DNA of 38,917 bases from Chloroflexota bacterium (GCA_009840965.1 VXMT01000126.1:1-38917); one strand, 5' to 3'; counted from the first letter of the stretch, positions 3,812 to 38,244 are shown. The notes: generated by a model from the sequence alone, not told the origin. Made by a program: numbers and translations.

Positions 3812-3865
3812 GTCAGGACCAAGCGACGAACATGGGCATCACTGTGGTGACGGTAGCTCTCGCGA
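3812..3865 (+). repeat. Dispersed intergenic element, copy 1 (internally deleted)
   Basis: 3812-3845 is identical (34/34) to 14231-14264; 3846-3865 matches 38205-38224 at 18/20; lacks 34 nt present in copy 3. Confidence 0.9.
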
Positions 3866-3981
3866 ACCACCGCGCTCCTGAGCAACCTGGAAACGGTGAC
3901 CCCACCGACGGCCTCCGACTCGCCCGGGGCCTGTCGAGGGCGTTCGGCGTGAGGACTCGTTGGGAGGATCGGAGCGACCGC

Positions 3982-4794
3982 TCAGCGCAGCTTCCACTCG
4001 GGCGGGCGCCCCTCGGCGAAGGCCCTCGGGCCCTCGATCGAGTCTTCCATCGCCTCGACCTTGTCGAACAGGGCGAGCCCGAAGCGCTGCGCCCAGTGAT
4101 CGTCCTGGAAGAGGTAGCGGTAGATGAGCTCCTTGTGCGTCCAGACCGAGACCGGGCCCATCTCGCAGACCTCCTCGGCCCACTGGATGGCTTCGTCGAG
4201 CAGCTGTTCCCTTGGCACGACCTTGTTGACCCAGCCGACCTCGTACATCCGCTGCGCGGTATATTGCCGCGCACCCCACAGGGTCATCTCCATCACCATG
4301 GCGGGCGGAATCATGCGTGCCGCCTGCGCCATGAACGACGCCGGGAGGTTCCAGCGCACTTCCGGAACCCCGAACATCGCGTGCTCCGCGGCGATGCGCA
4401 CATCGCAGATCTGAGACAGGAACCAACCCCCCGCCACGGCGAAGCCGTTGACGGCGCCGATGATCGGCTTCCAGAACTCGTGGTCCACCGGGGCGAGCTT
4501 GGCCCAGCCACCCTGATCGTCGACGTACTGGACGAAGCCGCCCTCGTACTCCTCGTCCAGCTCGGCGCGGTCCTTGAGGTCCTCACCGGCGCAGAAGAAG
4601 CGGTCACCCACCGCGGTCAGGATCACCGCCCAGATTTCGTCGTCGGCCTTGAGCCGCGGCCACTCCTGCGCAAGCCGGCGCGCGAGATCGAAGTTGATCG
4701 AGTTGCCGCGCTCCTCGCGGTTCACGGTCAGCACCGCGTAGTGTTTCTCCGGCACCCGCTCGACGAGCAGCACGTCATCTCCGCGTATCGCCAT
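3982..4794 (-). CDS. Enoyl-CoA hydratase/isomerase (crotonase) family protein
   Basis: FCAGEDL, KPIIGAVNGFAVAGG, FGVPE motifs; C-terminal EGPRAFAEGRPPEW; GGGAGG RBS. Confidence 0.93.
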   Translation of the reverse strand: MAIRGDDVLLVERVPEKHYAVLTVNREERGNSINFDLARRLAQEWPRLKADDEIWAVILTAVGDRFFCAGEDLKDRAELDEEYEGGFVQYVDDQGGWAKLAPVDHEFWKPIIGAVNGFAVAGGWFLSQICDVRIAAEHAMFGVPEVRWNLPASFMAQAARMIPPAMVMEMTLWGARQYTAQRMYEVGWVNKVVPREQLLDEAIQWAEEVCEMGPVSVWTHKELIYRYLFQDDHWAQRFGLALFDKVEAMEDSIEGPRAFAEGRPPEWKLR

Positions 4795-4818
4795 GTCGTC
4801 CCTCCCCAGGTTCCGCAG

Positions 4819-5268
4819 TCACTCTCGCGAGGGGAGCAGCACGGTGCCTTGCGCCGGCGTCGCAACCCCCTCGCGGTCGTTCGTGATCGAGAGCTCGATC
4901 TCGACGGCGTTGCCGTCGTCGGTCTGTTCCTTGGCGACGACCTTGCCGCTCACGGTGATGACATCGTCTGGCATGTTCATGCGCCGCATCTCGAAGTGCA
5001 GCCTGCGCACCCAGCCCTCCGGTCCGGCGAAGTCGGCGAGGAGGCGGTAGAGCTGCGCGCGAGTCCAGCCCGTGTTGTAGAAGATGGTGCGGTGCCCGCC
5101 GGACTGCGCGAACGGCGGGTCGTGGTGCACGGCGTAGAAGTCCTGCGAGCCGCTCACCTGCTTGACCATCTCGGTCCAGTCGAGCGTGTAGGAGAAGCCG
5201 GGCAGTTCGTCGCCCACGCTCACGTCCTCGAAGTAGATCTGCGGTAGTGGGTCCAGCTTGACGGCCAT
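4819..5268 (-). CDS. MaoC-like (hotdog) hydratase/dehydratase, catalytic-type subunit
   Basis: YFEDVSVGDELP start; SQDFYAVHHDPPFA carries the D-x4-H hydratase-2 motif. Confidence 0.88.
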   Translation of the reverse strand: MAVKLDPLPQIYFEDVSVGDELPGFSYTLDWTEMVKQVSGSQDFYAVHHDPPFAQSGGHRTIFYNTGWTRAQLYRLLADFAGPEGWVRRLHFEMRRMNMPDDVITVSGKVVAKEQTDDGNAVEIELSITNDREGVATPAQGTVLLPSRE

Positions 5269-5293
5269 CGCCGTGCTCCCTCGTGCTGAGCGC

Positions 5294-5869
5294 CTACGCC
5301 GTCTGCAGCCCGAGCGGGTCGGGGTCGGCCTCGACCTCCTCGGGCGCGCGGTGGCGCAGGCTCGTGTTGCGGCTGATCGCGACGAGCTCGTCGTCCTGGT
5401 TGTAGAAGCGCGTCTCGTCGATGATCCAGATCGCGTTCGGGTCGAGGCGGATCGGCTTGACGTAGACGTCCGCGATCGAGGGCTGCAACCAGAGCCGGTC
5501 GCCGATCCTCATGGGCTTCAGGAACTCCCACGTCGTGCTGAGGTTGATGGCCCGATCGCCGATCACGGGAACGTCGAGGTCCTCGTTCTCGGGCGCCGGG
5601 ATGTCGGGGCCGCCGTTCCAGTTCGGCCACGTCCCGTCGCCTGCGAAGTAGTCGGCCATCACCCCGGGGGCGATGTTGTCGCCGTACCGGCTGTTCCTCC
5701 CGTACTGGGGGTCGATGAAGAGCGGGTTCCTCCCGTAGCACATGTGCTCATGGCGGCGGATCGGATCGTGCTCCACCGGGTAGAGGCCATCCTTCCGCTC
5801 GCCCGTTCGTCCGACGTACTGCTCCCGAATCCTGTCGATGTCGTAGTCGGCCGCTGCTACCTTTGGCAT
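5294..5869 (-). CDS. MaoC/FAS1-like dehydratase N-terminal-domain protein (hotdog partner subunit)
   Basis: Start trimmed to MPKVAAADY (ATG 5869, GGGGGAG RBS); NPLFIDPQY, WEFLKPMRIGDRL, ETRFYNQDDELVA. Confidence 0.82.
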   Translation of the reverse strand: MPKVAAADYDIDRIREQYVGRTGERKDGLYPVEHDPIRRHEHMCYGRNPLFIDPQYGRNSRYGDNIAPGVMADYFAGDGTWPNWNGGPDIPAPENEDLDVPVIGDRAINLSTTWEFLKPMRIGDRLWLQPSIADVYVKPIRLDPNAIWIIDETRFYNQDDELVAISRNTSLRHRAPEEVEADPDPLGLQTA

Positions 5870-5954
5870 TGACTCCCCCTCACCGAGGGCCACGACTCCA
5901 GTGGCCGGCTCGCCGGGCCCCTCGGGTACGGGCCCGACGGCCGCCCCGCGCCTG

Positions 5955-6425
5955 TCAGATGTACGACCAGTGCACCAGCGAGTACGGGGGGTCGTGATCG
6001 AGGTGGTGTTCGAACACCGCCTCGACCTCGGCGCCGATGACGACGTCTTCCTCGGGCTCGCCGAGCAGGTTCCCGACCATGCGGATGTTTCCGGCATGCG
6101 GGAGCTCCACGAGGACGACGACGTACGGCACCGCCTCGACGAGCGCCGGGTGCACCGGATGCCACGCGCGCTCCCAGGAGTAGATTCGCCCGCGCGGCTC
6201 CACCTCCCGCCAATCGAGGTCGTACGAGTGACAGGTGTGGCAGAGCCACTCCGGACCCCACTGCCAGACATCGCAGGAGGGGCAGAACTGAACCAGCAGC
6301 TCGTTGCGGGCTGCACCCTCCCAGTAGGGGCGGTCCAGCTCGTTCATCAGCGGCACCGGGAACGCCGGAGCCTCGGCGAAGTATGCGCCGCCGGCCTCGA
6401 TCTCGGACTTCGTCGCGTTGGCCAT
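5955..6425 (-). CDS. DUF35 Zn-ribbon/OB-fold protein
   Basis: Start trimmed to ATG 6425; CPSC...CHTC, GRIYSW, VPYVVVLVEL, RMVGNL. Confidence 0.9.
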   Translation of the reverse strand: MANATKSEIEAGGAYFAEAPAFPVPLMNELDRPYWEGAARNELLVQFCPSCDVWQWGPEWLCHTCHSYDLDWREVEPRGRIYSWERAWHPVHPALVEAVPYVVVLVELPHAGNIRMVGNLLGEPEEDVVIGAEVEAVFEHHLDHDPPYSLVHWSYI

Positions 6426-6435
6426 CGTTCGTTCC

Positions 6436-7608
6436 CTACACTTCCGCGCCCAGGATGAGGTTGCTCGTCGGCTCGACCATCGGCCCCGAGGCGACGAGCG
6501 AGATCTCCGCACCCTCGACCTGAGAAGTCGAGGTGCCGCGGATCTGGCGCGTTGCCTCGGTGATCAGTTCGAAGCCGTGCATATAGCACTCGGCCAGATT
6601 GCCGCCGCTCGTGTTCAGCGGGAGGTCACCCGTGTCGAAGCGGAAGTTCTCGAGGGTGAACTCCTCGTTGACCCGCTCAGCCGGGACCAGCCCGTGCTCG
6701 ACGATGCTCATCATCACGCCGCCGGTGAAGTTCTCGTACATTTGCACGACGTCGACCTCGTCCGGCATGACCTCGGCCATCTCGTAGAGCCGCTTCGCGG
6801 TCACCTTGAAGTTGGACGTCGCGTAGTCCGGCGCGTTGTGCGCCGAGGCCGATTGCCGGTAGCCAGAGCCCTGCGCGGCTCCCAGAATGTACGCCGGCTT
6901 CTGCTTCAGGTCGCGGGCGCGCTCGGCGGTCGTGATGATCGCCGCGGCCGAGCCGTCGTTCTCCTGGCAGCAGTCGTAGAGGTGGAACGGCTCGACGATC
7001 CAGCGCGAGTTGTCGTACGTCTCCTCGTCGAGCGGCCGGCCGTACATGACCGCGCGGGGATTACGCTGGGCGTGGTAGTAGCAGGCGAGCGAGATCGCCC
7101 GCAGCGCCGACTGTTCCACGCCGTGCTCGTACATGTAGCGGTGGGTCTTCATCGCGAACATCTGCGCCGGCGACATCACCCCGTACGGCATCGCGAGGGC
7201 GTCCGGCCCCTCCACGCCGCCCGCGGCGACGGGCCCGCCGAAACGTCCGAACTCGCCCTGCGAGAGCGCGCGGTAGGCGACGGCGTAGTCGCAGAGCCCG
7301 GTGGCCACTGCCGCGGCCGCGTTCATGATCGCGGCCGATCCGCCGCCACCACCGCCGCCCCAGACCATCGAGCTGACCTTCAGATCCTCGATGCCCAGCG
7401 CGGTGGCGAAGCGGATCCCCTCGTTGCGGTCCATCGAGTAGGAGAAGAAGCCGTCGATCTCCCGAATATCGATGCCGGCATCGTCGGCCGCCTTCTGCAT
7501 GGCCATGAGGCCGAGCTTGAACTCGGCGTCCTCCGCCCCGCCCCGCTTGTAGTAGGCGGTCTCCCCGATGCCGACGATCGCGGCCTTCCCTCGAATCGTC
7601 TCCGTCAT
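6436..7608 (-). CDS. Thiolase-superfamily SCP2/Ltp2-like protein, probable aldolase
   Basis: AAIVGIGET, LYDCCQENDG, QMYENFT, LNTSGGNLAECYMHG; nucleophile loop is GGGGGGG with no Cys; GGAGGGG RBS before ATG 7608. Confidence 0.88.
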   Translation of the reverse strand: MTETIRGKAAIVGIGETAYYKRGGAEDAEFKLGLMAMQKAADDAGIDIREIDGFFSYSMDRNEGIRFATALGIEDLKVSSMVWGGGGGGGSAAIMNAAAAVATGLCDYAVAYRALSQGEFGRFGGPVAAGGVEGPDALAMPYGVMSPAQMFAMKTHRYMYEHGVEQSALRAISLACYYHAQRNPRAVMYGRPLDEETYDNSRWIVEPFHLYDCCQENDGSAAAIITTAERARDLKQKPAYILGAAQGSGYRQSASAHNAPDYATSNFKVTAKRLYEMAEVMPDEVDVVQMYENFTGGVMMSIVEHGLVPAERVNEEFTLENFRFDTGDLPLNTSGGNLAECYMHGFELITEATRQIRGTSTSQVEGAEISLVASGPMVEPTSNLILGAEV

Positions 7609-7651
7609 CTGCCCCTCCAATCGCTGCTCGTGCAGTCTCGTTGTTCTCCGC

Positions 7652-9043
7652 TCACGCTGTGGCGTCGCTCCCGTACGTGTCGCCGAACCGCTCCATCATG
7701 CGCTCCGTGTAGCGGGGATCGAACTCGACGATCCTGAGCTGAGCCGCAGGCGGCAGGTGCAGCCGCTCCTCGAGGTCGGCGGGGGGCGGCTTCATCTCGG
7801 CCGCATCCGGCGTGACGCCCATCGCGCCCGACGCGACGTACTCCTCGTACTCCTCCTCGCTGCATTCCAGCAACCCGGTCGCGATCAGGTGATTGTGCTC
7901 GCCGAGCATCGGGGCGCGCGTGCGCAGCTCGGCGGGAGTGCGGGAGAGCAAGGCCGAGGCGCCGGGCCAGGCCCGGCGGCCGGCCCCCTGCTCCGGCGCA
8001 TGGTCGACGAGCCAGAAGAACCCGCGGGCCTCGAGATGCGGATCGAGCAGCAGGTCGCGCGCGTTGGCCGCGACGGCGGCCGGCACGCCCCGAGCCTGCA
8101 ACTCGGAGACCGCTTCGTCGCCGTCGCGAGGGCGCGCCCACGCCTCCAGCGCCTCGCGGATCCGTTCCTGCTCGGCGGCGGAGAGTGGCTGCGCCCAGGG
8201 ATCGCGATCGACGTCGAGCGCCTCGAACTCGACCAGCTCGCGCAGCCCGTCCCACGAGGCACGATCGCAGACGTCGACCGCGAGCCAGCGCGAGCCGTCG
8301 TCGCACGGAACGCAGCCGGCGATCGGGTGACCGTCGTCGCCGTTCCCGCGCGGACCGGGAACGTTCGCGCCGAAGGCGCGGGCGACGTGCGCGTCGCCGA
8401 TCAGGTTGACGCCCACCTCGTACTGCGAGACGTCGACCCACGCGCCCTTGCCGGTGCGGTCGCGCCGCTCGAGCGCGGCGACCATGAGGAAGGCGATGTG
8501 ATAGGTCGCGGGGTGGTCGGTGAGGGGAATCGTGCCACGCTGGGGTGCCTCGCCTGCGTAGCCGTTGAGCGAGCTGATCCCGCTCATCACCTCGCTCATC
8601 ATGCCGTACGAGCGGATCTCGCTGTACGGACCGCCGTACCCGTAGCCGGAGGTCGAGACGTACACAAGGTCCTCGCGCGCGGCGCGCAGCTCCTCGTAGC
8701 TCAGCCCGAGATCCTCCATGAGCCCCGGCGGGTGGCTGTCGAGGACGATGTCGCAGCTCGCGACCAGGCGCAGGAAGAGCTCGCGGCCCCGGGGATTCCC
8801 GGCGTCCAGCCCGACGCAGTATGCCTTGTTCCGATGCTGTTCCAGGTAGATGCCGCTCTGTTCCCAGTACGGGTCGCCGGCGACGCCGTCGGGGAAGCAG
8901 AAGTTCCGCCCCAGGTCCGGCCGCCGGTAGTGCTCGACACGGATGATCTCGGCGCCGTAGTCGGCGAGCAGGCGCGCCGGGAACGTGCCCGCCTGCACGA
9001 TCCCGTTATCCAGCACGCGTACGCCGTCGAGTGCGCCGGGCAT
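7652..9043 (-). CDS. Class III (CaiB/BaiF) CoA-transferase, catalytic Asp present
   Basis: ALDGVRVLD, LADYGAEII, HRNK, GYGYGGPY, PLTDHPA, APMLGEHN. Confidence 0.92.
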   Translation of the reverse strand: MPGALDGVRVLDNGIVQAGTFPARLLADYGAEIIRVEHYRRPDLGRNFCFPDGVAGDPYWEQSGIYLEQHRNKAYCVGLDAGNPRGRELFLRLVASCDIVLDSHPPGLMEDLGLSYEELRAAREDLVYVSTSGYGYGGPYSEIRSYGMMSEVMSGISSLNGYAGEAPQRGTIPLTDHPATYHIAFLMVAALERRDRTGKGAWVDVSQYEVGVNLIGDAHVARAFGANVPGPRGNGDDGHPIAGCVPCDDGSRWLAVDVCDRASWDGLRELVEFEALDVDRDPWAQPLSAAEQERIREALEAWARPRDGDEAVSELQARGVPAAVAANARDLLLDPHLEARGFFWLVDHAPEQGAGRRAWPGASALLSRTPAELRTRAPMLGEHNHLIATGLLECSEEEYEEYVASGAMGVTPDAAEMKPPPADLEERLHLPPAAQLRIVEFDPRYTERMMERFGDTYGSDATA

Positions 9044-10221
9044 CAGATCGCCCCCGCTGCTGCGGCGGCCTGCAGCTCGCCTTCCGAGTGGCCAAGCAGT
9101 TCGCCGAACACAACAGCATTGTGCTCACCGAGCCGTGGGACGACTCGCATGCGCTCCGTGGCGCCCTCGGAGAGCGCGTACGGCGGCCCGGGGGCGCGTC
9201 CCTCTGCGCCGCCCGGCAGCCGGAGCGAGCCGAAGTGCGCGCGCGCCTCCAGGTGTTCGCAGGCCGCAACCTCGTCGAGCGTTTGCACCATGCCCGCCGG
9301 GACGCGGTGCTCCTTCGCCCGGGCGAACCACTCGCGGCGCGTGCGGGTGCGCATCGAGCGGGAGATGACGTCAGCCACGCGTCCGGCGTTCGCGGTCATC
9401 GAGAGTGGCGGTTGCAACTCCGGATCGAGGATCAACTCCTCCGCCTCGAGCGCGATGGCGAAAACATCCCACGGAACGGCGGTGTGCCAGTTCACGATGA
9501 TCGGGCCGTCCGAGGCCGGTTTCAGGTCGAGCCAGCCGCGAGCCTGCAGCGCTCCCTGGTACTGGTAGTCGGCGAAGTGCATGAAGTACGAGGCGACCAG
9601 CGACTCCTGGATGGAGACGTCGACATGCTGGCCCTCGCCGGTCAGCCGGGCGTGCCGCCGGGCGATCAAGGCGGCGTGCGCCGCATTGGACCCGGCCCAG
9701 TACTCGGAGATGTGGCGCGGGTAGCGCAGCGGCTCGCGGTCCTCGTCGCCGTTGCCGTCCATGAGGGCGGCGGCTGCCTGCAGGGTCAGCGAGCTGCCTC
9801 GGAGGTCACGCGACGGCCCGCTGCCGCCGAAGTTCGTGATGCTCACCCACACCACCGAGGGGTTCACACCGAGCACCTCTTCCAGGCCGAAGGCGTGGCG
9901 CTCCAGCGTACCGGGAGCGAAGTTCTCGACGACGATGTCGGCCCAGCGCACAAGCTCGCGCAGCCATTCGGCGCCGGTCGGCGTCGTGAAGTCGAGCGTG
10001 ACCGATCGCTTGTCCGCGTTGAGGAAGGCGTAGACGGCGCTGACCGTCTCGGCCGAGCCGTCGTCGAGCAGCGGCGGGAGCGCGCGGGCGGGGTCGCCGG
10101 CGCCGGGGCGCTCGACGTGAATGACATCGGCGCCCGCATCCACGAAGAGCTTCGCGCAGTACGGCCCGGCCGTGTAGCGGCCGAGATCGAGGATCCTCAG
10201 TCCCTCCAGCAGATCGTTCAT
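9043..10221 (-). CDS. Class III CoA-transferase subunit, Glu at the catalytic Asp position
   Basis: LEGLRILDL, AGPYCAKL, LNADKRSVTLD, RHISEYWAG, PRLGEHN; TGATG overlap with the downstream gene. Confidence 0.92.
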   Translation of the reverse strand: MNDLLEGLRILDLGRYTAGPYCAKLFVDAGADVIHVERPGAGDPARALPPLLDDGSAETVSAVYAFLNADKRSVTLDFTTPTGAEWLRELVRWADIVVENFAPGTLERHAFGLEEVLGVNPSVVWVSITNFGGSGPSRDLRGSSLTLQAAAALMDGNGDEDREPLRYPRHISEYWAGSNAAHAALIARRHARLTGEGQHVDVSIQESLVASYFMHFADYQYQGALQARGWLDLKPASDGPIIVNWHTAVPWDVFAIALEAEELILDPELQPPLSMTANAGRVADVISRSMRTRTRREWFARAKEHRVPAGMVQTLDEVAACEHLEARAHFGSLRLPGGAEGRAPGPPYALSEGATERMRVVPRLGEHNAVVFGELLGHSEGELQAAAAAGAI

Positions 10222-11129
10222 GCCACTGACCCCCGGAGCCGCGGGTCGAGGGTGTCTCGCAGACCGTCGCCGAGCACGTTGATCGCGAAGACCGTGACGG
10301 CCAGGGCAACGCCCGGGAAGAACGCCATCCAGGGGGCGCGCGTGACGTATGGCCGGGCCTCCACGCCCATCATCTGCCCCCAGGTCGGGTCCGGCGGCTG
10401 CACGCCGTAGCCGAGGAAGCTGAGCACGGACTCCGCGAGGATCGCCGAGCCGAGATTCAGCGAGGCGATGATGATGACGGGCGCGATCACGTTGGGGAGC
10501 ACGTGCCGCGCCATGACGCGTACGGGCGTGGCGCCGATGGTGGTGGCCGCCTCGACGTAGACCTCCTCGCGCACGCTCATCACGGCGCCGCGCACGATCC
10601 GGGAGCTTGTGACGCCCTGGTAGAGCCCGATGATCAGCGCGATGCTCAGGAAGCTGGCGCCCGCCATGGTGACGATGAGCAGCAGGAAGAGGATGAACGG
10701 GATGCCGATCGCGGCGTCCACGATACGCTGCAGCACCATGTCGGCGATGCCCCCGGCGTAGCCCGAGATCACGCCGACCAGCACGGCGATGAGGAGACCG
10801 AAGGCGACGGCCGCCAACCCCAGCAGGAGCGAGAAGCGCGTCGCGACCAGCACGCGGCTGAGGATGTCACGGCCGAGATTGTCGGTCCCAAGCAGGTACC
10901 CCTCCCCCGGTGAGCGCAGCCCGTTCAGCACGTCCGTATCGTACGGATCCTTCGGGGTGATGGAGGGCCCGATCACGGCGATGACCAGTCCGAACAGCAA
11001 CACGAGCGCCCCGAACGTCGCCAGCGGCTGTCGCCGGGCGAACACCCTGATCGCACGCCACCACCCCAGGGCCACGCTCGCGCGGCCCGCGCCGAGTGCG
11101 CGTTGCCTGCCTACACCGGTCGTAGCCAT
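10218..11129 (-). CDS. ABC transporter permease, DppC/OppC family
   Basis: LGTDNLGRDILSR, EAA loop YVEAATTIGA, LGDGLRDTLDPR. Confidence 0.95.
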   Translation of the reverse strand: MATTGVGRQRALGAGRASVALGWWRAIRVFARRQPLATFGALVLLFGLVIAVIGPSITPKDPYDTDVLNGLRSPGEGYLLGTDNLGRDILSRVLVATRFSLLLGLAAVAFGLLIAVLVGVISGYAGGIADMVLQRIVDAAIGIPFILFLLLIVTMAGASFLSIALIIGLYQGVTSSRIVRGAVMSVREEVYVEAATTIGATPVRVMARHVLPNVIAPVIIIASLNLGSAILAESVLSFLGYGVQPPDPTWGQMMGVEARPYVTRAPWMAFFPGVALAVTVFAINVLGDGLRDTLDPRLRGSVA

Positions 11130-11139
11130 CGCACTCCCA

Positions 11140-12093: not shown

Positions 12094-12142
12094 GAGCCAG
12101 TTGCTACTCAGTCGCCCCCGTTGCTCCGGCTGTCAACGCTCC

Positions 12143-13980: not shown

Positions 13981-14032
13981 GCTGTCTCTCCCCCCACCGC
14001 GGAGCAGCTACACGCTCCGCCGGCCCAGCCTC

Positions 14033-26543: not shown

Positions 26544-26550
26544 ACGGTGC

Positions 26551-27666: not shown

Positions 27667-27674
27667 GGCTCGCC

Positions 27675-28868: not shown

Positions 28869-28931
28869 GGACGACCACCTTGCTGCGGAGCAGCTCCCGC
28901 GCCTGGCGCGGCGACCGCCCCACGGCACGTA

Positions 28932-28944
28932 CTTACAGTGTACG
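28932..28944. promoter_or_regulatory. Palindromic operator, site 6
   Basis: CTTACAGTGTACG, 64 nt upstream of the acyl-CoA dehydrogenase pair. Confidence 0.75.
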
Positions 28945-28998
28945 CGCCGCACCTTGTACCAGAGCGCGGCGAGCGCCTCAAGTCGGGAACGGCGGAGT

Positions 28999-30315: not shown

Positions 30316-30357
30316 GGCCGTGGACCTCCCCCGTGCTCGGAGCGCGCGCAGGCGCAG

Positions 30358-30370
30358 CGTACACCGTATG
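30358..30370. promoter_or_regulatory. Palindromic operator, site 7
   Basis: CGTACACCGTATG, 43 nt upstream of ATG 30315. Confidence 0.7.
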
Positions 30371-30491
30371 CTCGCCAATGCTGCGGGGTGAGGCCGCTAC
30401 CCGGTCGCGTTCAGCAGGTGCTGTGCTTCGCCTGGACGGCGCCCCTGCGTACGGCCGTCCCCGACCGCGCTCGGCCCCCTCGAGGCCGGCG

Positions 30492-31184
30492 TCAGGGCTG
30501 CGCGGCCACGCCGGCTTCGCGGGCCGCGAGTGGTTCGGACGCGCCGTGAAGGTAGTCCTCCAGCCCGCGCAGGATCACCCGCATCCCGAACTCGAACTCG
30601 AGGTCGCGATCGACGCGCCGGAAGTACTGGCGGTGCTCGGAAGCGACCGGCATCTCGGTCTCGCTCATCTCCGCGAAGCCCCGGGCAATGTCCCGGCCGT
30701 GCTTGCCGATGAAGTAGTCGCCGAGGATGCACCCGGTCTCGAAGTTCCCGATCAGGTGGAACGCGTGCTCGACCATCTCCCCGCGGAATCCGGCCTGCGT
30801 GAGCACGGACATCTGCCACTCGATATTCGCCATGCCGGCTTCGGTCAGCATTCCGTGTGAGACGCTGATCGGGATTACCTCGCGGTGCCGGAGCATCGCG
30901 TCGCGACGCCTGATCGCGGACTCAAGGATCGCATCGGCCCAGTGCTCGACCGGCGGTTGCTCCGCCTCGCCCTGGACGAGGTTGACGACGCCCCGGAGCA
31001 CGTCGTCCTTGTTCTCCACGTGGCGGTAGAGCGACATCGCCTCGACGTTCAGCGTGGCGGCGAGCTTACGCATGCTGAGCGCGGCGGCGCCGTGCTCGTC
31101 GACGAATTCGAGGGCCGCGCGGAGTATCCGTTCGCGCGAGAGCGGGCGTTGGCGTGGAGCGATGCTCGGACCCCCGTTCGGCAT
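30492..31184 (-). CDS. TetR/AcrR family regulator with a TetR_C-type domain
   Basis: HTH LSRERILRAAL...LSMRKLAATLNVEAMSLYRHVENKDD; C-terminal EFEFGMRVILRGL; start taken at ATG 31184 (uncertain). Confidence 0.93.
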   Translation of the reverse strand: MPNGGPSIAPRQRPLSRERILRAALEFVDEHGAAALSMRKLAATLNVEAMSLYRHVENKDDVLRGVVNLVQGEAEQPPVEHWADAILESAIRRRDAMLRHREVIPISVSHGMLTEAGMANIEWQMSVLTQAGFRGEMVEHAFHLIGNFETGCILGDYFIGKHGRDIARGFAEMSETEMPVASEHRQYFRRVDRDLEFEFGMRVILRGLEDYLHGASEPLAAREAGVAAQP

Positions 31185-31330
31185 GTCCCCGGCGCCGGCC
31201 AGCGGACGGTCATGCTCAAGTGCAGACGGTGTCTCTCGAATCGTGCCACCCCCATGGCCACGGGACAAGCCAGCGACCCCGACGGTTGCACGATGCCAGG
31301 TTCGTCCTCCCTCGGTTCAATCCTCCCGGG

Positions 31331-32611
31331 CTACGCGACCACGCGGTCCGAGCGCAGCTGACCGATCTCCTCGTCGGAGAGCCCGGCTTCGCGAAGCACC
31401 GTGTCCGTGTCCGCGCCGAGGGCCGGGGATGCTCGCCGCACCCCGGTAGGCGTCTTCGAGAGCGTGACCAGCGGGCCGACGACCCGCTGCAGGCCCGTGA
31501 CGGCGTGCTCCACCTCGGCCATCAGCCCCATCGCCTCGATCTGAGGATGGTCGGAGAGCTCTTCCGGCAGGTTGACGGGCCCGACGGGAACGCCGGCCTC
31601 GGTGAAGCGCTCGATGATCTCGGCGGAGGTTTGCGAGGCGAACGCCTCGCGGATGTGCGCGACGCGCGTCTCCGCGTACGCGATGCTGTCGGGGTCGAGG
31701 GCGTCGAAGTCCGGGTCGTCGCTCGGATCATCGGTGATGCCCAGCAACTCCCGGACCCCCGCGCGCGTCCGCGGGGTGACCGCGCCGAGCTGCACGACGC
31801 CGTCCTTCGTCGCGTAGGCCATGTGGAAGCCGCGCCAGGCCGCGGAGTCCGAGCCAACCGCCGAGCGCGCCGCAATCACCTCCTCGTAGCCTCCCCCACG
31901 CTCGCGCACCCGCCGAACGTCCTCGAGCATCGGGTCGCGAACGACGGCGTCGCTCACCGGCTCGCGCATCACCTCGTAGGGCTGGAGCGCGATCGAGGAT
32001 CGCAGCAGCGACGTCTCGACCTTCTGGCCCTCGCCGGTCATCGCGCGGTGGTAGAGGGCGGAGAGCACGCCGGCGGCCCCGGCCAGGGCGCACGACAGGT
32101 CGCCCAGCGGTGCGCAATCCACGGTCGCCGGCTGCCCCCACGCGTCGAGCTTCCCCTCACCGGCGATCAGCCCCGCGAACGCGGTCGCCACGGGGTCGAC
32201 CGACCCGTTGCTCGCGAGGGGCCCGTCGGGGCCCCAACCGGTGAGCTCGCAGTAGATGATGTCGGGACGCAGCTCCCGGAGCTGCTCGTAGTCGACGCCA
32301 AGCCGCCGCGCCAGCCCATAGCGATAGTTCATGGTGACGATGTCGAAGGCGGGTACCAGGCGATGCACGAGGGCGCGCCCGGCCTCCTGCTGGAGATCGA
32401 CCACGATGCCTCGCTTGTTGCGGTTGAGCGACTGAAACCGCTTGGCCTCGCCGGGCACCACGGAACCCCAGAGGCGATGCGGATCTCCCTCCGGACGTTC
32501 CACCTTCACGACGTCGGCGCCAAGGTCGGCGAGGATGCAGCCGAGGAACGGCGCCGCGACGATCTGCGAGAACTCCAGGACCCGTACGCCGTGCAGCGGG
32601 CCGTTCGCCAT
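31331..32611 (-). CDS. Class III CoA-transferase (paralogue of 28999..30315)
   Basis: ATG 32611 after GAGGAGG; GPLHGVRVLEFSQIVAAP, LNRNKRG, PLGDLSC, SPALGADT. Confidence 0.93.
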   Translation of the reverse strand: MANGPLHGVRVLEFSQIVAAPFLGCILADLGADVVKVERPEGDPHRLWGSVVPGEAKRFQSLNRNKRGIVVDLQQEAGRALVHRLVPAFDIVTMNYRYGLARRLGVDYEQLRELRPDIIYCELTGWGPDGPLASNGSVDPVATAFAGLIAGEGKLDAWGQPATVDCAPLGDLSCALAGAAGVLSALYHRAMTGEGQKVETSLLRSSIALQPYEVMREPVSDAVVRDPMLEDVRRVRERGGGYEEVIAARSAVGSDSAAWRGFHMAYATKDGVVQLGAVTPRTRAGVRELLGITDDPSDDPDFDALDPDSIAYAETRVAHIREAFASQTSAEIIERFTEAGVPVGPVNLPEELSDHPQIEAMGLMAEVEHAVTGLQRVVGPLVTLSKTPTGVRRASPALGADTDTVLREAGLSDEEIGQLRSDRVVA

Positions 32612-32758
32612 GGCAATCCTCCTCGAGTTGCCGGACACCTCAGGCGGTGGAGCGACGTTACGCCGTCCCCGGGCCCCCGTCACGGGCACGGGCCGACATC
32701 GGGGAGCCGTCCGGGGTGCGCATGCGCCCATGATCCGCCAGACCTTGGCGATGGGTAC

Positions 32759-32805
32759 TTGACAACCCGGCGGCCAAGCTTACATTGTACGCCTTACACT
32801 GTACA
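32759..32805 (+). promoter_or_regulatory. Sigma70 promoter with tandem operator sites 8 and 9
   Basis: TTGACA 32759-32764; CTTACATTGTACG 32779-32791 (contains the -10-like TACATT); CTTACACTGTACA 32793-32805. Confidence 0.82.
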
Positions 32806-32853
32806 TCTATATACGTGGTGCGGGCGCAGTCGCTCGCGGAAGGAGTGCATCAA

Positions 32854-34725
32854 GTGGTGGATTTCCCCGGTCGAACCGACAACCTGCTCAGCCGGCGGGC
32901 ACTGCTGAGGGGAGGAGCGCTCGGTGTCGCAGGCCTCTCGGTCGCCGCGCTCGTTGGCTGCGGCGACGACGATGACGACGACGCCGTAGCAACCGCCACG
33001 CAAGGCCCGGCAGCCGCGACCGCCACGCCGGCCGCGACCGCGGCCGCGACGGAGGCTCCGGCAGCCACACCGGCGGCGACGGCCACTCCGGCGGCGGCAG
33101 CCACCGAGGCCCCCAGGGAGGAGTTCCTGAACGCGGAGCTCCTGAAGCTCAACGACCCGGACGCGCCGCTTCCCTACGTGGCTCCCGAGCCGAACCTGAC
33201 TCCCAAGGCGGGCGGCGTCATTCGCATCACCTTCCCGAACCCGATCGGCGCCAACGACCCGACGAAGGCCAGCAACGGCGGGACCATCGGCGTGCTCGGT
33301 GCCGTCATGGACCGGCTGCTCGAGTTCGAGGGCAACGCCCAGCTGCACCCGTTCAAGGTCCCGGACCGGCTTCCCGGTCTGGCCCAGACCTGGGAGATCT
33401 CGCCCGACGGTCTGACGCTGACCTTCAACGTGGCCGAGAACGCGAAGTTCCACAACGTGCCGCCGGTGAACGGGCGGGACTTCACGGCCGAGGATGTCCG
33501 CTGGGCCTACAACCGCTACGCGACCGAAGGCCTCCACAGGTCGAAGTTCGACAACACGGCATCGATGGACACGCCCGACACCCACACGTTCCGGATGCAG
33601 CTGAACGCCCCCCAGCCCGACCTCTCGGTCAACATGGGTGCGCGCGAGATGCCGATCTATCCCCGGGAGCTCGTGGACGGGGCGCAGAACCTGCTCGAGG
33701 AACACGTCCTGATCGGGACCGGCCCGATGATCTCGGACTCCTTCACGGAGGACCTCACGCTCTTCACGTACGTGAAGAACGCCGAGTACTGGAAGCAGGA
33801 CGTGCTGCTCGACGGCATGGAGCTTCACGTCGTCCGGGACGGGGCCGCGCGCCTCGCCGGCTATCGCGCCGGGCAGTACGACGCCGGCGGGTTCGCCACC
33901 ATCCTGCCCCAGGCGCAGGCCCTGCTCGCGTCCAACCCGGACACTCAGCTCCACTACACGCCCCCGGCGAACAGCCTCTGGGCGATGGCGCCGAACATCT
34001 CGAACCCCAAGTGGGACGACGCCCGGCTCCGCCAGGCGATGATGCTCGCGATCGATCACCAGAAGATCGTCGACACCGTGCACCATGGCCTCTCGTCGGT
34101 TCTGCCCGTCATGCCGTGGATTCACGTCTTCGACGATCCGCCGGGCGAAGCCGAGCTGGGTCCCTGGTTCAAGTACGACCCCGAGCAGGCGAGCCAGCTG
34201 CTCAGCGCGGCCGGGTTCGCGGACGGGTTCGAGTTCGCGCTGAGTCACGCGTACGACTTCATCGACCCGACGCTGGCGATCGTGTACGACGGCTTCCGCG
34301 ACGTCGGGATCACCGTGAACATCGAGAAGCACGACTACGCGGCCTTCCAGGCGGTCTACATCGGGCGGGAGTTCGAGGAGTCCGCAGCCGGCTACTGGGT
34401 CGGCGGCTACGACGCCGACAACTTCTTCAAGGTCCACCTCGCCACCGGATCGTCGGGGAACCTCGGCCGGGTCTCGGATCCGCAGCTCGACGAGTGGGCT
34501 GTGCAGCAGTCGCACGAGCTCGACCCGGACGCGAGGCGCGAGATCCTGCGCAGGATCTGGGACCGCTACCTGGACCAGGCGTACAGGATCCCGCTGACGT
34601 CGGAGGGCACGATCAGCACCTACGCGCCGCACGTCCGGAACTACAGGGTTGGTGCGCCGCTCGTCTCGATCACGGTCAGCGGAAACGAGGGCACTCACAT
34701 CGCTCCCGTGTGGCTCGACACGTAG
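32854..34725 (+). CDS. Family-5 ABC substrate-binding Tat-lipoprotein
   Basis: GTG 32854 after AAGGAG; LSRRALLRG...LVGC, poly-Asp, Ala/Thr/Pro linker, PGLAQTWEIS, PPVNGRDFTAEDV, IGTGPM. Confidence 0.93.
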   Translation: MVDFPGRTDNLLSRRALLRGGALGVAGLSVAALVGCGDDDDDDAVATATQGPAAATATPAATAAATEAPAATPAATATPAAAATEAPREEFLNAELLKLNDPDAPLPYVAPEPNLTPKAGGVIRITFPNPIGANDPTKASNGGTIGVLGAVMDRLLEFEGNAQLHPFKVPDRLPGLAQTWEISPDGLTLTFNVAENAKFHNVPPVNGRDFTAEDVRWAYNRYATEGLHRSKFDNTASMDTPDTHTFRMQLNAPQPDLSVNMGAREMPIYPRELVDGAQNLLEEHVLIGTGPMISDSFTEDLTLFTYVKNAEYWKQDVLLDGMELHVVRDGAARLAGYRAGQYDAGGFATILPQAQALLASNPDTQLHYTPPANSLWAMAPNISNPKWDDARLRQAMMLAIDHQKIVDTVHHGLSSVLPVMPWIHVFDDPPGEAELGPWFKYDPEQASQLLSAAGFADGFEFALSHAYDFIDPTLAIVYDGFRDVGITVNIEKHDYAAFQAVYIGREFEESAAGYWVGGYDADNFFKVHLATGSSGNLGRVSDPQLDEWAVQQSHELDPDARREILRRIWDRYLDQAYRIPLTSEGTISTYAPHVRNYRVGAPLVSITVSGNEGTHIAPVWLDT

Positions 34726-34746
34726 CCCGAGCACGGCCGCCACAAG

Positions 34747-34791
34747 GCGAGCCGCGCTTCCCAAACATGCCCCGAGGGAAGCGCGGCTCGC
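34747..34791 (+). terminator. Strong intercistronic hairpin after the binding-protein gene
   Basis: GCGAGCCGCGCTTCCC-13nt-GGGAAGCGCGGCTCGC, a perfect 16-bp stem with no U-tract. Confidence 0.7.
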
Positions 34792-34851
34792 TGCAATACG
34801 AAGCGTCGCCGCGCCATCGCGTAGCATGAAGTCGCGAACTGTCGGTGCACG

Positions 34852-35805
34852 ATGACCACGGCGTACGTCGCGAGGCGCCTGCTCTCCGCCCTACCGTCCG
34901 TTGTCATCGTCTCGATGATCATCTTCTCGCTCGTGCGCCTGCTCCCGGGCGACGTGGTCATGGCCCGCGTGGCCGACGGGGGCTTCTACACCCAGGAAGA
35001 CCTCGATCTGATCCGGGCCGATCTCGGGCTCGACCGGAACTTCTTCGCGCAGTACGTGACCTGGGCCGGTGGTCTGCTGCGGGGCGACATGGGCACCTCG
35101 CTCTGGTCGACCAACGAAGTCACTTCGATGATCAGGCACAGCATGCTGCTCTCGATCAAGCTCACGCTGCTGTCGATGCTGGTGGCGCTCGCCATCGCGA
35201 TTCCCCTGGGCGTGCTGTCCGCGGTCAAGCAGGACTCATTCGTTGACTACCTGGCGCGCCTCTTCTCCATCCTCGGGCTTTCCATTCCCGATTTCTGGCT
35301 GGCGACGATGGTGCTGCTGGGCTTCTCCAAGTACGTGGGCTGGCTCCCGCAGTTCGGCTGGTTCGCCCCGTGGGACGACCCGTGGAGGAACGTGCAGGCC
35401 CTGATCTTCCCGGCGCTGATCATCGGCTACCGCTTCTCCGCGGTGACCGCGCGGATGACGAGGTCGGCGCTGCTCGAGGTGCTCCGGGAGGACTACGTGC
35501 GGACGGCGCGCGCCAAGGGATTGCGTGAGGGCGCGGTCATCTGGCGGCACGCGCTGCGGAACGCCCTGATCCCGGTGATCACGATCGTCGGGACCCAGGT
35601 CGGCTTCCTGTTCGGCGGCCTCGTCGTCATCGAGTTCGTGTTCGGGCTTCCGGGGATGGGGCAGCTCACGTACGACGCGGTCGTCCGCCGCGACTATCCG
35701 GTGGTCCAGGGCACGGTGATGGTCATGGCGCTCGTCTTCATCCTGGCGAACCTCGCCGTCGACCTCTCGTACTCGCTGCTGGACCCGCGGATCCGCTATG
35801 CCTAG
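34852..35805 (+). CDS. ABC transporter permease, DppB/OppB family
   Basis: GDMGTS, EDYVRTARAKGL, HALRNALIP, DPRIRY. Confidence 0.95.
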   Translation: MTTAYVARRLLSALPSVVIVSMIIFSLVRLLPGDVVMARVADGGFYTQEDLDLIRADLGLDRNFFAQYVTWAGGLLRGDMGTSLWSTNEVTSMIRHSMLLSIKLTLLSMLVALAIAIPLGVLSAVKQDSFVDYLARLFSILGLSIPDFWLATMVLLGFSKYVGWLPQFGWFAPWDDPWRNVQALIFPALIIGYRFSAVTARMTRSALLEVLREDYVRTARAKGLREGAVIWRHALRNALIPVITIVGTQVGFLFGGLVVIEFVFGLPGMGQLTYDAVVRRDYPVVQGTVMVMALVFILANLAVDLSYSLLDPRIRYA

Positions 35806-36751
35806 CTCCGGCCCGGGCGACGATCGGCGGCAGGCCGGGGCGGCAGCGGCCGAGCAAGCCTTCGCGGGCGGTGGGGCGCTGGCGCTCGAGCTCGGGGCGC
35901 GGAGATCGCTGCATCCCGCCGTCGCCGCCTCCATCCGGGTGGCGAAGGTGCCCGTGGCCTTCGTCTCGCTCGTCGTGATTCTCGGGCTGATCGTGATCGC
36001 GGTCGGCGCTCCGTGGTTTGCTCCCTACGACCAGTTCGAGACGACCCGCAACACGTTCCAGGCGCCCAGCCTCGACCACCTCGCCGGGACGGACGAGGTC
36101 GGCCGCGATCAGCTCGCGCGACTGATCTACGGCGCGCGGGTATCGCTGTACGTGGGGATCATCGCGGTGGCGGTCGGCGTTGGGGCGGGGTCCATCGTGG
36201 GGCTCGTCAGCGGCTTCGTCGGCGGCGTCTTCGACCTCGTGGTGCAGCGGGTCGTCGACGCCCTGCTCGCCTTCCCCGGCATCGTGCTTGCCATGGCCCT
36301 TGTCTCGGTGTTCGGCACAAACACCACGAACGCCCTGCTGGCGATCGCGATCGTGATCGCACCCGCCACCTCGCGCGTGATCCGCAGCTCGACCCTCTCC
36401 GAGAAGGAGCGCGTCTACGTCGAGGCGGCCGCGGCCGTCGGAGCCAGTCCGCTGCGCGTGATGCTGCGGCACGTGGTTCCAAATATCTTCGCGCCGGTCC
36501 TGATCCTCGCGACCACCTTCCTGGGAGCGGCCATCCTGATCGAGGCGGGGCTGAGCTTCCTCGGGCTGGCGACGCAGCCGCCGAGTCCGTCGTGGGGCCT
36601 CATGCTCGCGACGTCCGGACGCCAGTACATGGAGTTCGCGCCGTGGCTGGCCGTCGTCCCCGGCGCGGCGATCAGCGTCACCGTGCTCTGCTTCAACCTG
36701 CTGGGCGACGTCGTACGGGACGTGCTCGATCCGAGGTTGCGCTCCTCGTGA
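35798..36751 (+). CDS. ABC transporter permease, DppC/OppC family
   Basis: GTDEVGRD, YVEAAAAVGA, EAGLSFLG, LGDVVRDVLDPR. Confidence 0.95.
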   Translation: MPSSGPGDDRRQAGAAAAEQAFAGGGALALELGARRSLHPAVAASIRVAKVPVAFVSLVVILGLIVIAVGAPWFAPYDQFETTRNTFQAPSLDHLAGTDEVGRDQLARLIYGARVSLYVGIIAVAVGVGAGSIVGLVSGFVGGVFDLVVQRVVDALLAFPGIVLAMALVSVFGTNTTNALLAIAIVIAPATSRVIRSSTLSEKERVYVEAAAAVGASPLRVMLRHVVPNIFAPVLILATTFLGAAILIEAGLSFLGLATQPPSPSWGLMLATSGRQYMEFAPWLAVVPGAAISVTVLCFNLLGDVVRDVLDPRLRSS

Positions 36752-36848
36752 GCGAGCGGCCCGGACGGCGCGGCGCAGGTCGAACGACGCGCGCGAGTGG
36801 TGCGCTGCCCCCGGCCGGGGCCGCGGGCAGCGCAGAAAGGGAACCCCG

Positions 36849-38030
36849 ATGACGATCGATTCGCCGCTCCGCGGTATCCGCGTGATCGAACTCAGCAGCA
36901 TGATCGCCGGTCCAATCGTGGGGCGCCTGTTCGGCGAGCTCGGAGCCGACGTCGTCCACGTCGAGCCGCCGTACGGCGACGATGGCCGCAATTCAACTAC
37001 CGAGTTCCTCGGCAGCGAAGGCGTGTTCCACTCGATGCACAACCGCAGCAAGCGCGGGCTCGTCGTCGACATCAAGCAGCCGGACGGCCGCGACGTGATC
37101 CGCCGTCTGGCCCGCGAGGCCGACGTCCTGATCGAGAACATGACGGTGGGGACCCTCGATGACCTCGGACTTGGCTACGAGGCGCTTCGCGCCGAGAACC
37201 CGCGGCTCGTCTACGTCTCGATCAGCGCCTGGGGCAGGGAGGGCCCGCTTGCACTGCTCCCCGGGTACGACATCCTGATCCAGGGCTTCACCGGAGCCGT
37301 GCAGTCGCCGGCTCCGGACCTGCCGCCGGTGCTCAGCCCGTCGCTCGTCGGCGACCCCGTCGCCCCCCTGATCGCGGCGTTCGCCACCCTCGTGGCCCTC
37401 CGCGACCGGGATGCGACGGGGGAGGGGACGCACGTCACCACCTCGCTGCTGCAGGCCGCCCTCCACATGCGGGCCACGGACGGCATGATCGCCGAAGGGG
37501 ATCCCGGGGTGGGCGACTGGGGGAGCAGCGGAGTCGGGGGTCTCGCCGTGCTCGAGACCGCGGACGGCCTGTTCGTGGTCCTCTGCGCGTGGACGGACGA
37601 GCACTACCGGCGACTCTGCGAGCTCGCGGACTTCGAGCACGGCCTTGCGGAGCAGTTCGAAACGCGCCTCGGCCGGATGGAGCACGCCGAGGCGTTGAAC
37701 GAGGTCTTCGCCCACTGGGTCGGCACCATGGATCGAGGCGACCTTGTGGCCCTGCTGCGACGAGAGGGCATCCCGATCGCCCCGGTCAACACGGACCCCC
37801 GAGAGCTGCTGCGGGACGCCGGCCTCCGCGACGCCGGAATGGTGGTACCGATCGATCATCCGACCAGGGGCCGGTTCTGGCAGTTCGGGGTGCCGTTCGA
37901 GCTGGACGGTCGGCGCGGCGACGTCTGGCCCGCGCCGCTCCTCGGCGAGCACAGCGACGACGTGCTCCGGGAATACGGCTTCGGCGACCAGGAGATCGCG
38001 GACCTGCGACAGTCCGGGTCGGTCGCATAG
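36849..38030 (+). CDS. Class III CoA-transferase
   Basis: PLRGIRVIELSSMIAGP, HNRSKRG, PGYDIL, LVGDPVA, APLLGEHS. Confidence 0.93.
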   Translation: MTIDSPLRGIRVIELSSMIAGPIVGRLFGELGADVVHVEPPYGDDGRNSTTEFLGSEGVFHSMHNRSKRGLVVDIKQPDGRDVIRRLAREADVLIENMTVGTLDDLGLGYEALRAENPRLVYVSISAWGREGPLALLPGYDILIQGFTGAVQSPAPDLPPVLSPSLVGDPVAPLIAAFATLVALRDRDATGEGTHVTTSLLQAALHMRATDGMIAEGDPGVGDWGSSGVGGLAVLETADGLFVVLCAWTDEHYRRLCELADFEHGLAEQFETRLGRMEHAEALNEVFAHWVGTMDRGDLVALLRREGIPIAPVNTDPRELLRDAGLRDAGMVVPIDHPTRGRFWQFGVPFELDGRRGDVWPAPLLGEHSDDVLREYGFGDQEIADLRQSGSVA

Positions 38031-38136
38031 GAGTCGCCACCCGGAGCGCTACCCGCGCAACCGTCCCGCGACCTGCGAAACGCCACCTCGGTCCGCCGGA
38101 GGACGTTCCCCGAGACGACAACGCCGGGAGGTGGAA

Positions 38137-38244
38137 GTCAGGACCAGGCCACGAACATCGGCGTCACTGTTCGGGAACGACAACATCGAGCGCGTGCCGG
38201 TGGTGGTGACGGTGGCGCTCGCGAGGCGCAGCAAGCGCGACTGA
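38137..38244 (+). repeat. Dispersed intergenic element, copy 3
   Basis: 64/72 nt identical to copy 2; 3' part matches copy 1; lies between the convergent CoA-transferase and amidase genes. Confidence 0.9.

Follow-up and report, generated by a model that had tools for sequence, protein, structure and literature searches.

Short repeats downstream of dnaN in Chloroflexota as probable attachment-site scars of a large serine recombinase

We analyzed a 38,917-nt stretch of DNA from a Chloroflexota bacterium (GCA_009840965.1 VXMT01000126.1:1-38917, the window), which is the complete contig C18 of the metagenome-assembled genome (MAG) G000 (2.69 Mb, 296 contigs, 69% G+C) and whose DNA is present in public runs that are sponge metagenomes. 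The window holds three copies of a short repeat between blocks of catabolic genes, and these repeats are very probably the distal attachment (att) junctions, or scars, of integrative elements inserted by a large serine recombinase (LSR) into the 3' end of dnaN. At the level of sequence we could establish the composition of the copies, the overlap of dnaN with the LSR gene, the position and orientation of the copies relative to dnaN, and the joining of one arm to several left halves with a switch at a common core. Genome scars of this kind are known; we found no report in the literature of serine recombinases naturally targeting dnaN, as judged by titles and the starts of abstracts and with subscription journals and supplements outside the coverage, and the matches that combine dnaN with a serine-recombinase term concern, by the same parts of the text, engineering or unrelated work (ORBIT, a CRISPRi study, a review).

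All three copies lie on the plus strand (Table 1), beyond the 3' ends of minus-strand genes whose stops are 60-117 nt away (an enoyl-CoA hydratase, 3982; a luciferase-like monooxygenase, 14390; an amidase, 38304), just where a first-pass annotation made from the sequence alone had placed them. Copies 2 and 3 form the direct-repeat family D3 (14231-14321 versus 38137-38227, 84% over 91 nt), and the left parts of all three form the family D10, in which 3812-3845 equals 14231-14264 at 34 of 34 nt and is 88% identical to 38137-38170. Following the check on copy number that the annotation had proposed, we compared copy 2 with the whole MAG (BLASTN, E<=10) and obtained 21 matches, three with E<1e-10, all on C18, and 18 with E>=0.07; the copies are therefore far beyond chance and number exactly three in G000. 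An nhmmer profile recovered the same three, the next match being weak (E=0.044) and falling on the real dnaN end on contig C3. Alignment with copy 3 showed that 34 nt of the right part are missing from copy 1, as had been noted, and because the copy 1 ortholog in the relative G004 (L063) is full length, the deletion is derived; with most of the half-site on the arm side gone, copy 1 can probably no longer recombine. Inspection of repeats and alignments showed no terminal inverted repeats or target duplications at the copies, as the annotation had also found.

Read on the minus strand, the left part of the copies gives a peptide that matches the C-terminus of the DNA polymerase III beta clamp, DnaN. 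The real dnaN gene of G014 ends in the type of the window's left halves, ..VVMPMFVAWS-stop, and those of G003, G008 and G000 end in ..VVMPMFVQW-stop; the real ends are identical to the copies up to ..GGCAT, beyond which they continue into the body of dnaN and the copies into the arm. The shared core comprises 14 nt, AC(G/A)AACAT(C/G)GGCAT, equivalent to the V-M-P-M-F codons, and lies at the center of a GAAC/GTTC dyad, with GAAC at -10..-7 and GTTC at +7..+10 around the point between GGC and AT; we infer the central dinucleotide, that is, the exact crossover, of the site. An inverted repeat, CGAACA-N10-TGTTCG, had been described across an apparent frameshift in copies 2 and 3; it is present in both and corresponds to this dyad.

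Table 1. Repeat copies, their parts and the adjoining blocks in the window
Feature	Position	Strand	Remarks
Copy 1	3812..3865	+	Probable distal att junction (scar); right arm minus 34 nt starting 6 nt past the core
Copy 1, putative displaced dnaN terminus	3813..3845	-	TVMPMFVAWS + TGA; compare the real G014 DnaN end
Copy 1 core	3826..3839	.	14-nt common core ACGAACATGGGCAT, predicted crossover region
Copy 2	14231..14329	+	Probable distal att junction between blocks M1 and M2; sequence-only model E=1.1e-23
Copy 2, putative displaced dnaN terminus	14232..14264	-	TVMPMFVAWS + TGA
Copy 2 core	14245..14258	.	14 nt; dyad center between 14256 and 14257
Copy 2, element-side arm	14259..14329	+	Frame continues the recombinase (LFGNDKIEH.. 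peptide) to TAG 14327-14329
Copy 3	38137..38244	+	Probable distal att junction, left edge of the amidase block; model E=1.3e-28
Copy 3, putative displaced dnaN terminus	38138..38170	-	TVTPMFVAWS + TGA
Copy 3 core	38151..38164	.	14-nt core ACGAACATCGGCGT; G008/G009 homology begins exactly here (38150/38151)
Copy 3, element-side arm	38165..38244	+	Frame to TGA 38242-38244; accompanies the amidase block in the four relatives holding that block
Block M1 (cargo)	3866..14230	.	Enoyl-CoA hydratase, MaoC-like dehydratase, thiolase-like protein, two family III CoA-transferases, two ABC permeases, solute-binding protein (Pfam)
Block M2 (cargo)	14330..38136	.	Five luciferase-like monooxygenases, acyl-CoA dehydrogenases, CoA-transferases, TetR, second ABC importer (Pfam)
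Next block, start	38245..38917	.	Minus-strand amidase gene, truncated at the contig end

A recombinase gene meets dnaN at this site. In G000 itself, contig C3 (4.1 kb) carries a 524-aa open reading frame (ORF; 1858-3429, +) that converges on and overlaps dnaN (DNA_pol3_beta_2/_3) and has the domains of an LSR (PF00239 Resolvase, 1.3e-31; PF07508 Recombinase, 1.1e-23; PF13408 Zn_ribbon_recom, 1.7e-15). In G015, of the same genus, an intact 517-aa recombinase and a 384-aa dnaN ORF with the end ..VVMPMFVQW are convergent and overlap (L082). Among 151 genomes sampled from the class, 28 gave an LSR match at E<=1e-40, G000 included, and we checked dnaN in the 18 best of the others: the LSR converges on the dnaN end in 8 (G020, G132, G013, G093, G074, G157, G149 and G092, from seven families), the two genes lie on different contigs in 8, and no dnaN was found at E<=1e-30 in 2. 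At the junctions of ten genomes DnaN ends in ..MPMFVQW(S)-stop, and a T(I/T)xxTxA motif stands on the opposite strand in 9 of the 10, where the LSR-like ORF ends or runs on; in G013 the LSR ORF crosses the dnaN end in another frame, and in a few genomes it reads on where the dnaN codon choice removes the TGA.

The ends of the recombinases themselves agree with this arrangement. Database relatives bear the Resolvase, Recombinase and zinc-ribbon domains. Among the 23 recovered, nine, with lengths of 513-516 aa, terminate exactly at ..T(S/W)A, a stop position that matches the TGA created antisense to the V-M codons of dnaN, and three longer ones (545-546 aa) extend into a tail of another type that can still be aligned (W-type). 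In several loci of the relatives (L026, L028 and others), the ORF upstream of the core is the C-terminal part of an LSR and runs in frame through the core into the arm. Against its own reading, the annotation had set the case that the copies are ordinary decayed 3' ends of one known gene family; they do match gene ends, though in an unexpected way, those of two known genes at once, dnaN and the LSR gene, as probable att junctions.

The divergence of the copies reflects coding constraints on two strands. The right part is the best-conserved stretch of the unit, and its two main variants keep Leu and Arg through multi-nucleotide synonymous changes. Using the Nei-Gojobori method on all six frames over 60 nt of the right part, with column shuffles as the control, we found the lowest ratio of nonsynonymous to synonymous differences (pN/pS) in the frame LFGND..VPVVV.., with 0.52 for all copies (1 of 1000 shuffles as low), 0.43 for class B, the class of the window's three copies (2 of 1000), and 0.56 for class R (4 of 1000); the five remaining frames ranged from 0.69 to 1.91 in the full set. 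Over the left part, the plus frame (QDQATN..) has stops in 8 of 18 distinct class-B copies and a pN/pS of 0.63, with 51 of 500 column shuffles as low. The minus frame that shares its wobble positions, ..PMFVAW(S/G/A) followed by TGA or TAG at a fixed place, has a pN/pS of 0.37 (3 of 500) and internal stops in 0 of 18, and the left-part signal belongs to this frame, not to the plus frame chosen in the annotation. The divergence across two frames reported there for copies 2 and 3 is thus a real pattern, but the first of the two frames fails across the family. Judged by these comparisons, the apparent shared frameshift is the crossover point between opposite-strand coding constraints, a copy of the dnaN terminus on the minus strand and a recombinase-tail arm on the plus strand, and a recoded mini-gene, one of the options raised at the outset, loses its basis.

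It is extremely unlikely that the unit functions autonomously, be it as a small recoded or frameshifted gene, a structured RNA or a terminator, and has spread as a mobile repeat. Such an element could account for the coding-like divergence in two frames, the conserved inverted repeat and the placement between gene ends, but the copies have no start codon or ribosome site in common, in copy 1 the arm frame is closed by a stop immediately ahead of the unit, the plus frame of the first part is interrupted as described, and the copy number is low and regional. An Rfam scan of the whole window at the gathering threshold gave 0 matches, and a tRNA/tmRNA scan of the window also gave 0, so this is not a tRNA-type att site; RNAalifold returned 0 consensus pairs for 38 copies. 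Of the inverted repeat, the five inner pairs persist in 29-34 of these 38 family members; 73.9% of cells are paired, with 129 of 500 shuffles as high, and covariation in the hairpin is no better than in shuffles (0.057 versus 0.053). We therefore rejected a structured RNA, riboswitch or terminator family, which the annotation had allowed for, on the Rfam, RNAalifold and covariation results, and a programmed frameshift or recoded small gene on the upstream stops, the lack of a shared start codon and the minus-strand signal. Two further readings were set aside: a minus-strand ORF through the whole unit, which is open in all three copies yet has a pN/pS of 0.84 over the arm, and a lanthipeptide-like minus-strand reading, in which the Cys residues differ between copies 2 and 3.

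The family extends well beyond G000. Copy 3 found matches in 31 of 61 related genomes (BLASTN, E<=0.01), G000 included and with 15 of 18 genomes within the genus, and strong matches (E<1e-10) in ten genomes besides G000. We extracted and aligned 44 copies and used 38 of them (alignment A1) to build a sequence-only model, with which five genomes were scanned: at E<=1e-10, it matched 9 times in G001, 7 in G014, 6 in G009, 5 in G003 and 2 in G000, where copy 1 is weak (E=0.006). In each of these genomes the strong copies lie on one strand only and cluster within 100-200 kb. By the annotation, tens of copies with fixed ends would have supported a mobile family; what we found is 2-9 strong copies per genome, all co-oriented and regional. 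Its proposal of a mobile or protein-derived repeat family holds insofar as the unit derives from proteins and marks mobile DNA, not in the sense of a dispersed, high-copy mobile repeat; a miniature inverted-repeat transposable element or a repeat like the repetitive extragenic palindromes was rejected on the same numbers (3 copies in G000, 5-9 strong ones in relatives, one strand, one region) and on the lack of terminal inverted repeats and target duplications.

The copies are also ordered with respect to dnaN, which we located in five relatives. The four scanned relatives hold 27 strong copies (E<=1e-10), 25 of them on the dnaN contig; all 25 are oriented with their dnaN-like end co-directional with dnaN, and 24 of the 25 lie 21-245 kb downstream of the dnaN stop (G014, 21-202 kb; G003, 25-156 kb; G009, 68-114 kb; G001, 145-245 kb). 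In G000, the copies (C18) and dnaN (C3) are on separate contigs, and the linkage is not assembled. These positions bear on a further explanation, in which the copies are decayed 3' fragments of recombinase pseudogenes left by deletions, bear no relation to att sites and resemble dnaN only as a by-product. Recombinase remnants do precede several members (L026, L028, L070, L023_2924), and the arm is in frame with the recombinase ORF, but left of the core the three copies in the window and 16 further class-B members lack recombinase homology and have instead a dnaN-type stop, TGA or TAG, in a constant position. Such left halves are precisely those found at the ends of real dnaN genes, and decay alone leaves both the co-orientation with dnaN and the downstream location unexplained; we consider this explanation very unlikely.

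Integration at the dnaN end by an LSR would produce the unit as follows. The element's attachment site would lie across the end of its LSR gene, such that one strand encodes the last conserved residues of the LSR, ..TIEQTSA, and the opposite strand encodes spare last codons of DnaN with a stop (..MPMFVQW-stop or ..MPMFVAWS-stop). An element with such a terminal LSR gene would recombine with the chromosomal dnaN end inside the 14-nt identical core, integration and excision at these sites being, as we suppose, catalyzed by the LSR. The dnaN end would remain intact after integration, with the element's own synonymous copy replacing the last codons, and the old dnaN end would be displaced to the far side of the element and fused to its other arm, giving the unit seen three times in the window. 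Repeated integration at the regenerated dnaN end would stack elements, and scars would therefore accumulate downstream of dnaN in one orientation. Older elements would lose their recombinase and persist as cargo blocks, and M1 and M2 may themselves have arrived by LSR integration at dnaN. The protein-like conservation of the arm would most likely reflect its translation as an LSR tail, either in the excised circle or with another element behind.

The combinations in which the parts of the unit occur in related genomes are informative about the place of exchange. Left halves of the dnaN-end types are variously combined with dnaN body, S-type arm or W-type arm on the right, the switch falling within the 14-nt core, and the same right arm with the amidase block is joined to four left halves, one in G001, G014 and the window and the others in G004, G009 and G008. 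The four left halves on one arm and the homology to G008 and G009 that starts at the core are what exchange at the core predicts; among the options in the annotation, that of a recombination site is likewise supported in substance. The amidase block (from 38123-38151 on) recurs in G001, G008, G009 and G014, always with a copy directly before it and preceded by different blocks among the relatives; M1 (3917-14146) recurs with other neighbors in G008, G009, G012 and G014, 4 of the 7 relatives' regions; and M2 (14409-38038) recurs only in G001 (1 of 7), with a copy 182 nt past its right end. The four synteny breakpoints inside the window are all found at a distance of 72-98 nt from a copy, and over eight regions 22 of 78 breakpoints fall within 300 nt of a copy versus 2.2 expected. 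Because the left neighbor of the amidase block in G001 resembles the flank of copy 1, the window carries 34 kb more between the two than G001 does.

Segmental duplication and ordinary homologous recombination of the dnaN-end region, with the blocks shuffled by RecA-dependent exchange, would fit some of this pattern, namely the 34 identical nt of copies 1 and 2, the array breakpoints away from copies (56 of 78) and the M1 and M2 edges that are not exactly at the core. Against it, the switch between left half and arm is confined to the 14-nt core at the dyad center, an intact LSR gene overlaps the dnaN end in G000 and in 8 of 18 other genomes checked, and the copies are only 74-95% alike and therefore poor substrates for homologous exchange. 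We regard this explanation as very unlikely.

Several observations sit less easily with integration by an LSR at dnaN. The window has no recombinase by Pfam, M1 and M2 included, and no direct sign of excision or circular forms. The window's tail type occurs in four database ORFs (P0001, P0002, P0003 and P0023), all without a Resolvase domain and none on an intact LSR. Over the eight regions, the 56 breakpoints just mentioned are away from any recognizable copy, and only the amidase block starts exactly at the core: the homology of M1 sets in 52-105 nt past copy 1 and stops 36-91 nt short of copy 2, the copies flanking M1 vary between genomes, and M2 in G001 is 1.25 kb from the nearest left copy. 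One strong copy of G014 (G014:C4:1146606-1146708, E=4e-16) lies 1.29 Mb from dnaN, outside the array. Simple stacking, moreover, predicts recombinase-type left halves at internal junctions, and the three class-B junctions of the window would need recombinase-less donors or later exchange between copies, the latter being suggested by the identity of copies 1 and 2 at 34 of 34 nt.

The contigs of public runs bear on the order of the blocks as well. Comparing four runs with window positions 1-20000, we found that, at copies 1 and 2, each of the four junctions between copy and flank is spanned by contigs of the probable source run with 0-1 differences. The Logan unitigs of that run, however, break inside the 34-nt segment common to copies 1 and 2, so the contig order is without independent confirmation, and contigs of the four public runs contained no clean empty-site or circle joint. 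The source-run contigs may also reflect an alternative pairing at the 34-nt segment, with the flank joined to M2 and M1 as a circle. In a contig from another study, 3812 is connected to 14233 with two additional letters; this could be a form without M1 or an undeleted copy 1.

If elements do enter dnaN by way of an LSR, the position of the att site would have a consequence for the enzyme. We put forward, as a doubtful but possible extension, that the LSR gene is built across its own att site so that integration re-tails the enzyme, with the arm-encoded tail acting as a switch of activity, stability or directionality and with those recombinase-less catabolic blocks that have intact scars on their flanks being cassettes mobilizable in cis. 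Beside dnaN, the LSR would stop at ..TSA; in the circle, or when another element lands behind, it would gain an arm tail of ~26-30 residues. The arm-encoded tail has a pN/pS of about 0.5, and the S-type and W-type arms are homologous. If both parts of the proposal were true, the 200-kb region behind dnaN would be an LSR-driven platform for the exchange of metabolic genes in sponge-associated Chloroflexota.

Further recombinase loci and copies varied in structure. In the C3 locus (L135, 1-4123), the LSR ORF crosses the core in a frame other than that of the main subfamily and ends inside dnaN antisense, and the contig itself ends inside dnaN; an XRE-type helix-turn-helix gene at 308-673 (-) upstream of the LSR is the only such neighbor noted on the 4.1 kb. 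In L028 (G003:C1:3293863-3296958), an LSR gene that has the window's tail type, the upstream part is cut off by an insertion with an ORF that encodes HTH_32 and HTH_29 (transposase-type) domains. A conserved small gene lies downstream of the full-length LSRs of G002 and G001 (L079/L080), which we take to resemble HEPN/PaREP1-type proteins. A scan of genome contigs with a single LSR found 1 locus, and a scan of metagenome contigs with an LSR alignment found 80, mostly distant or truncated, of which 1 (L148) has an LSR converging on dnaN; the latter scan is uninformative on how often intact LSRs carry the arm-encoded tail. An integron-like model, with the site beside the recombinase as the entry point for cassettes, was dropped after dnaN had been located at the LSR end. 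Other arm types (the W-type and a third type) are found at 10909-11010 of the G008 region (reverse complement), at 73167-73290 of the G009:C5 region and at L080/L079; the peptides they encode in the plus frame can be aligned with that of the window's arm and have F, K, E, P and T in common with it, which suggests one ancestral tail. G017:C4:814868-815079 (L032) is a tandem pair of copies 146 nt apart. After M1, G014 (region 175256-176299, reverse complement) and G012 (C4 32468-33511, reverse complement) have a degenerate left half, ~950 nt with an ORF and a partial arm, an arrangement that looks like a scar divided by a later insertion.

The blocks between the window's copies, 10.4 kb (M1) and 23.8 kb (M2) long, consist of catabolic genes, and across the arrays inter-copy blocks span 1.3-27 kb, with genes on both strands. 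By Pfam, the window as a whole encodes five luciferase-like monooxygenases, five family III CoA-transferases, enoyl-CoA hydratases, thiolase-like proteins, acyl-CoA dehydrogenases and TetR, along with two ABC importers without ATPase genes. The importers are paralogous, each with a family 5 solute-binding protein and two permeases, and lie in opposite orientation at 10218-13980 in M1 and at 32785-36751 in M2, which accounts for the long inverted repeats I1-I3. At 29002-32731, two paralogous family III CoA-transferase genes flank a TetR gene and contain the direct repeats D1 (74%) and D20 (71%). The ~1 kb at 2840-3810 to the left of copy 1 (ORFs 2566-3549, +, and 2578-3447, -; a 39-codon ORF at 3653-3772, -) had no Pfam match, and the ~60 nt that immediately precede copy 1 are found again ahead of the amidase-linked copy in G001 and of the copy 1 ortholog in G004.

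For sequence analysis, a repeat that appears frameshifted between two frames can thus be explained by opposite-strand coding constraints that meet at a crossover, which would make this pattern a useful diagnostic for att scars in raw sequence. Few protein genes are known as targets of LSRs; dnaN, which is essential for replication and lies next to the origin, would join them, and the region behind it in a Chloroflexota class would be a hot spot, up to at least 245 kb long, that gathers blocks for lipid and CoA-ester catabolism. In annotation, the ~100-nt units should be taken as neither genes nor RNAs, and since contigs break at them, the order of MAG contigs nearby needs care. The LSR with its short, well-defined sites is a candidate new integrase/att pair.

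Among known systems, integrons invite comparison by their attC arrays, which likewise place co-oriented recombination sites between gene blocks within one region. Integrons use the tyrosine recombinase IntI, their attC sites are folded single-strand structures, and a cassette is usually a single promoterless gene, with all cassettes pointing one way; the dnaN arrays share none of these features, having blocks of 1.3-27 kb with genes on both strands. The phiRv1 serine integrase reportedly uses the REP13E12 repeat family as attB, as Bibb and Hatfull are said to have described in 2002. It is similar in that a serine integrase is tied to a multi-copy chromosomal sequence, and different in that REP13E12 is a pre-existing dispersed repeat that serves as the target, whereas the repeats here would be products of integration at one gene. 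In mycobacteriophage BPs and its relatives, the gene concerned in integration-dependent immunity is the repressor, and the integrase is a tyrosine recombinase. As far as the portion of the source considered here describes it (PMC4557955), the att site of BPs lies inside a coding region of the element, as in the dnaN elements, and integration therefore changes the C-terminus of the encoded protein. Unlike in BPs, it is the recombinase's own gene that would be re-tailed here, with a putative functional consequence.

The closest known systems are the genomic islands of Dehalococcoides at ssrA (ssrA-GIs, with the recombinase DsiB) and, after them, the staphylococcal cassette chromosome (SCC). SCC elements differ from those described here in target gene, phylum and cargo. 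Their target gene is rlmH/orfX, and their ccr genes lie inside the element and do not overlap the end of the target gene. By the parts of PMC3146451 drawn on here, where ssrA-GIs are themselves compared with SCC, the likeness to SCC/SCCmec (Ccr) and its composite arrays lies in the LSR as mover, the 3' end of a conserved single-copy gene near the origin, the flanking direct repeats, the stacking of elements and the persistence of recombinase-less ones. In the same parts of that paper (McMurdie et al. 2011, PMC3146451), ssrA-GIs are described with a ~540-aa CcrB-like serine recombinase, DsiB, beside the target and a direct repeat embedded in its gene; tandem islands carry co-oriented direct repeats within about 100 kb downstream of ssrA, and islands without an integration module are read as cis-mobilizable or fixed, with catabolic cargo. 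The dnaN arrays match this description in the Chloroflexi host, the LSR beside its target, the repeat within the LSR gene, the 3' end of a single-copy essential gene as the target, the tandem co-oriented repeats downstream, the recombinase-less islands and the catabolic cargo. They differ from it, so far as those parts tell, in having a conserved unit of ~100 nt with a protein-like arm in place of a 20-bp repeat, in reaching at least 245 kb, and in targeting the protein gene dnaN in place of a tmRNA gene, so that the repeat carries codons and a stop and is dual-coded, the end of DnaN on one strand and the end of the LSR on the other.

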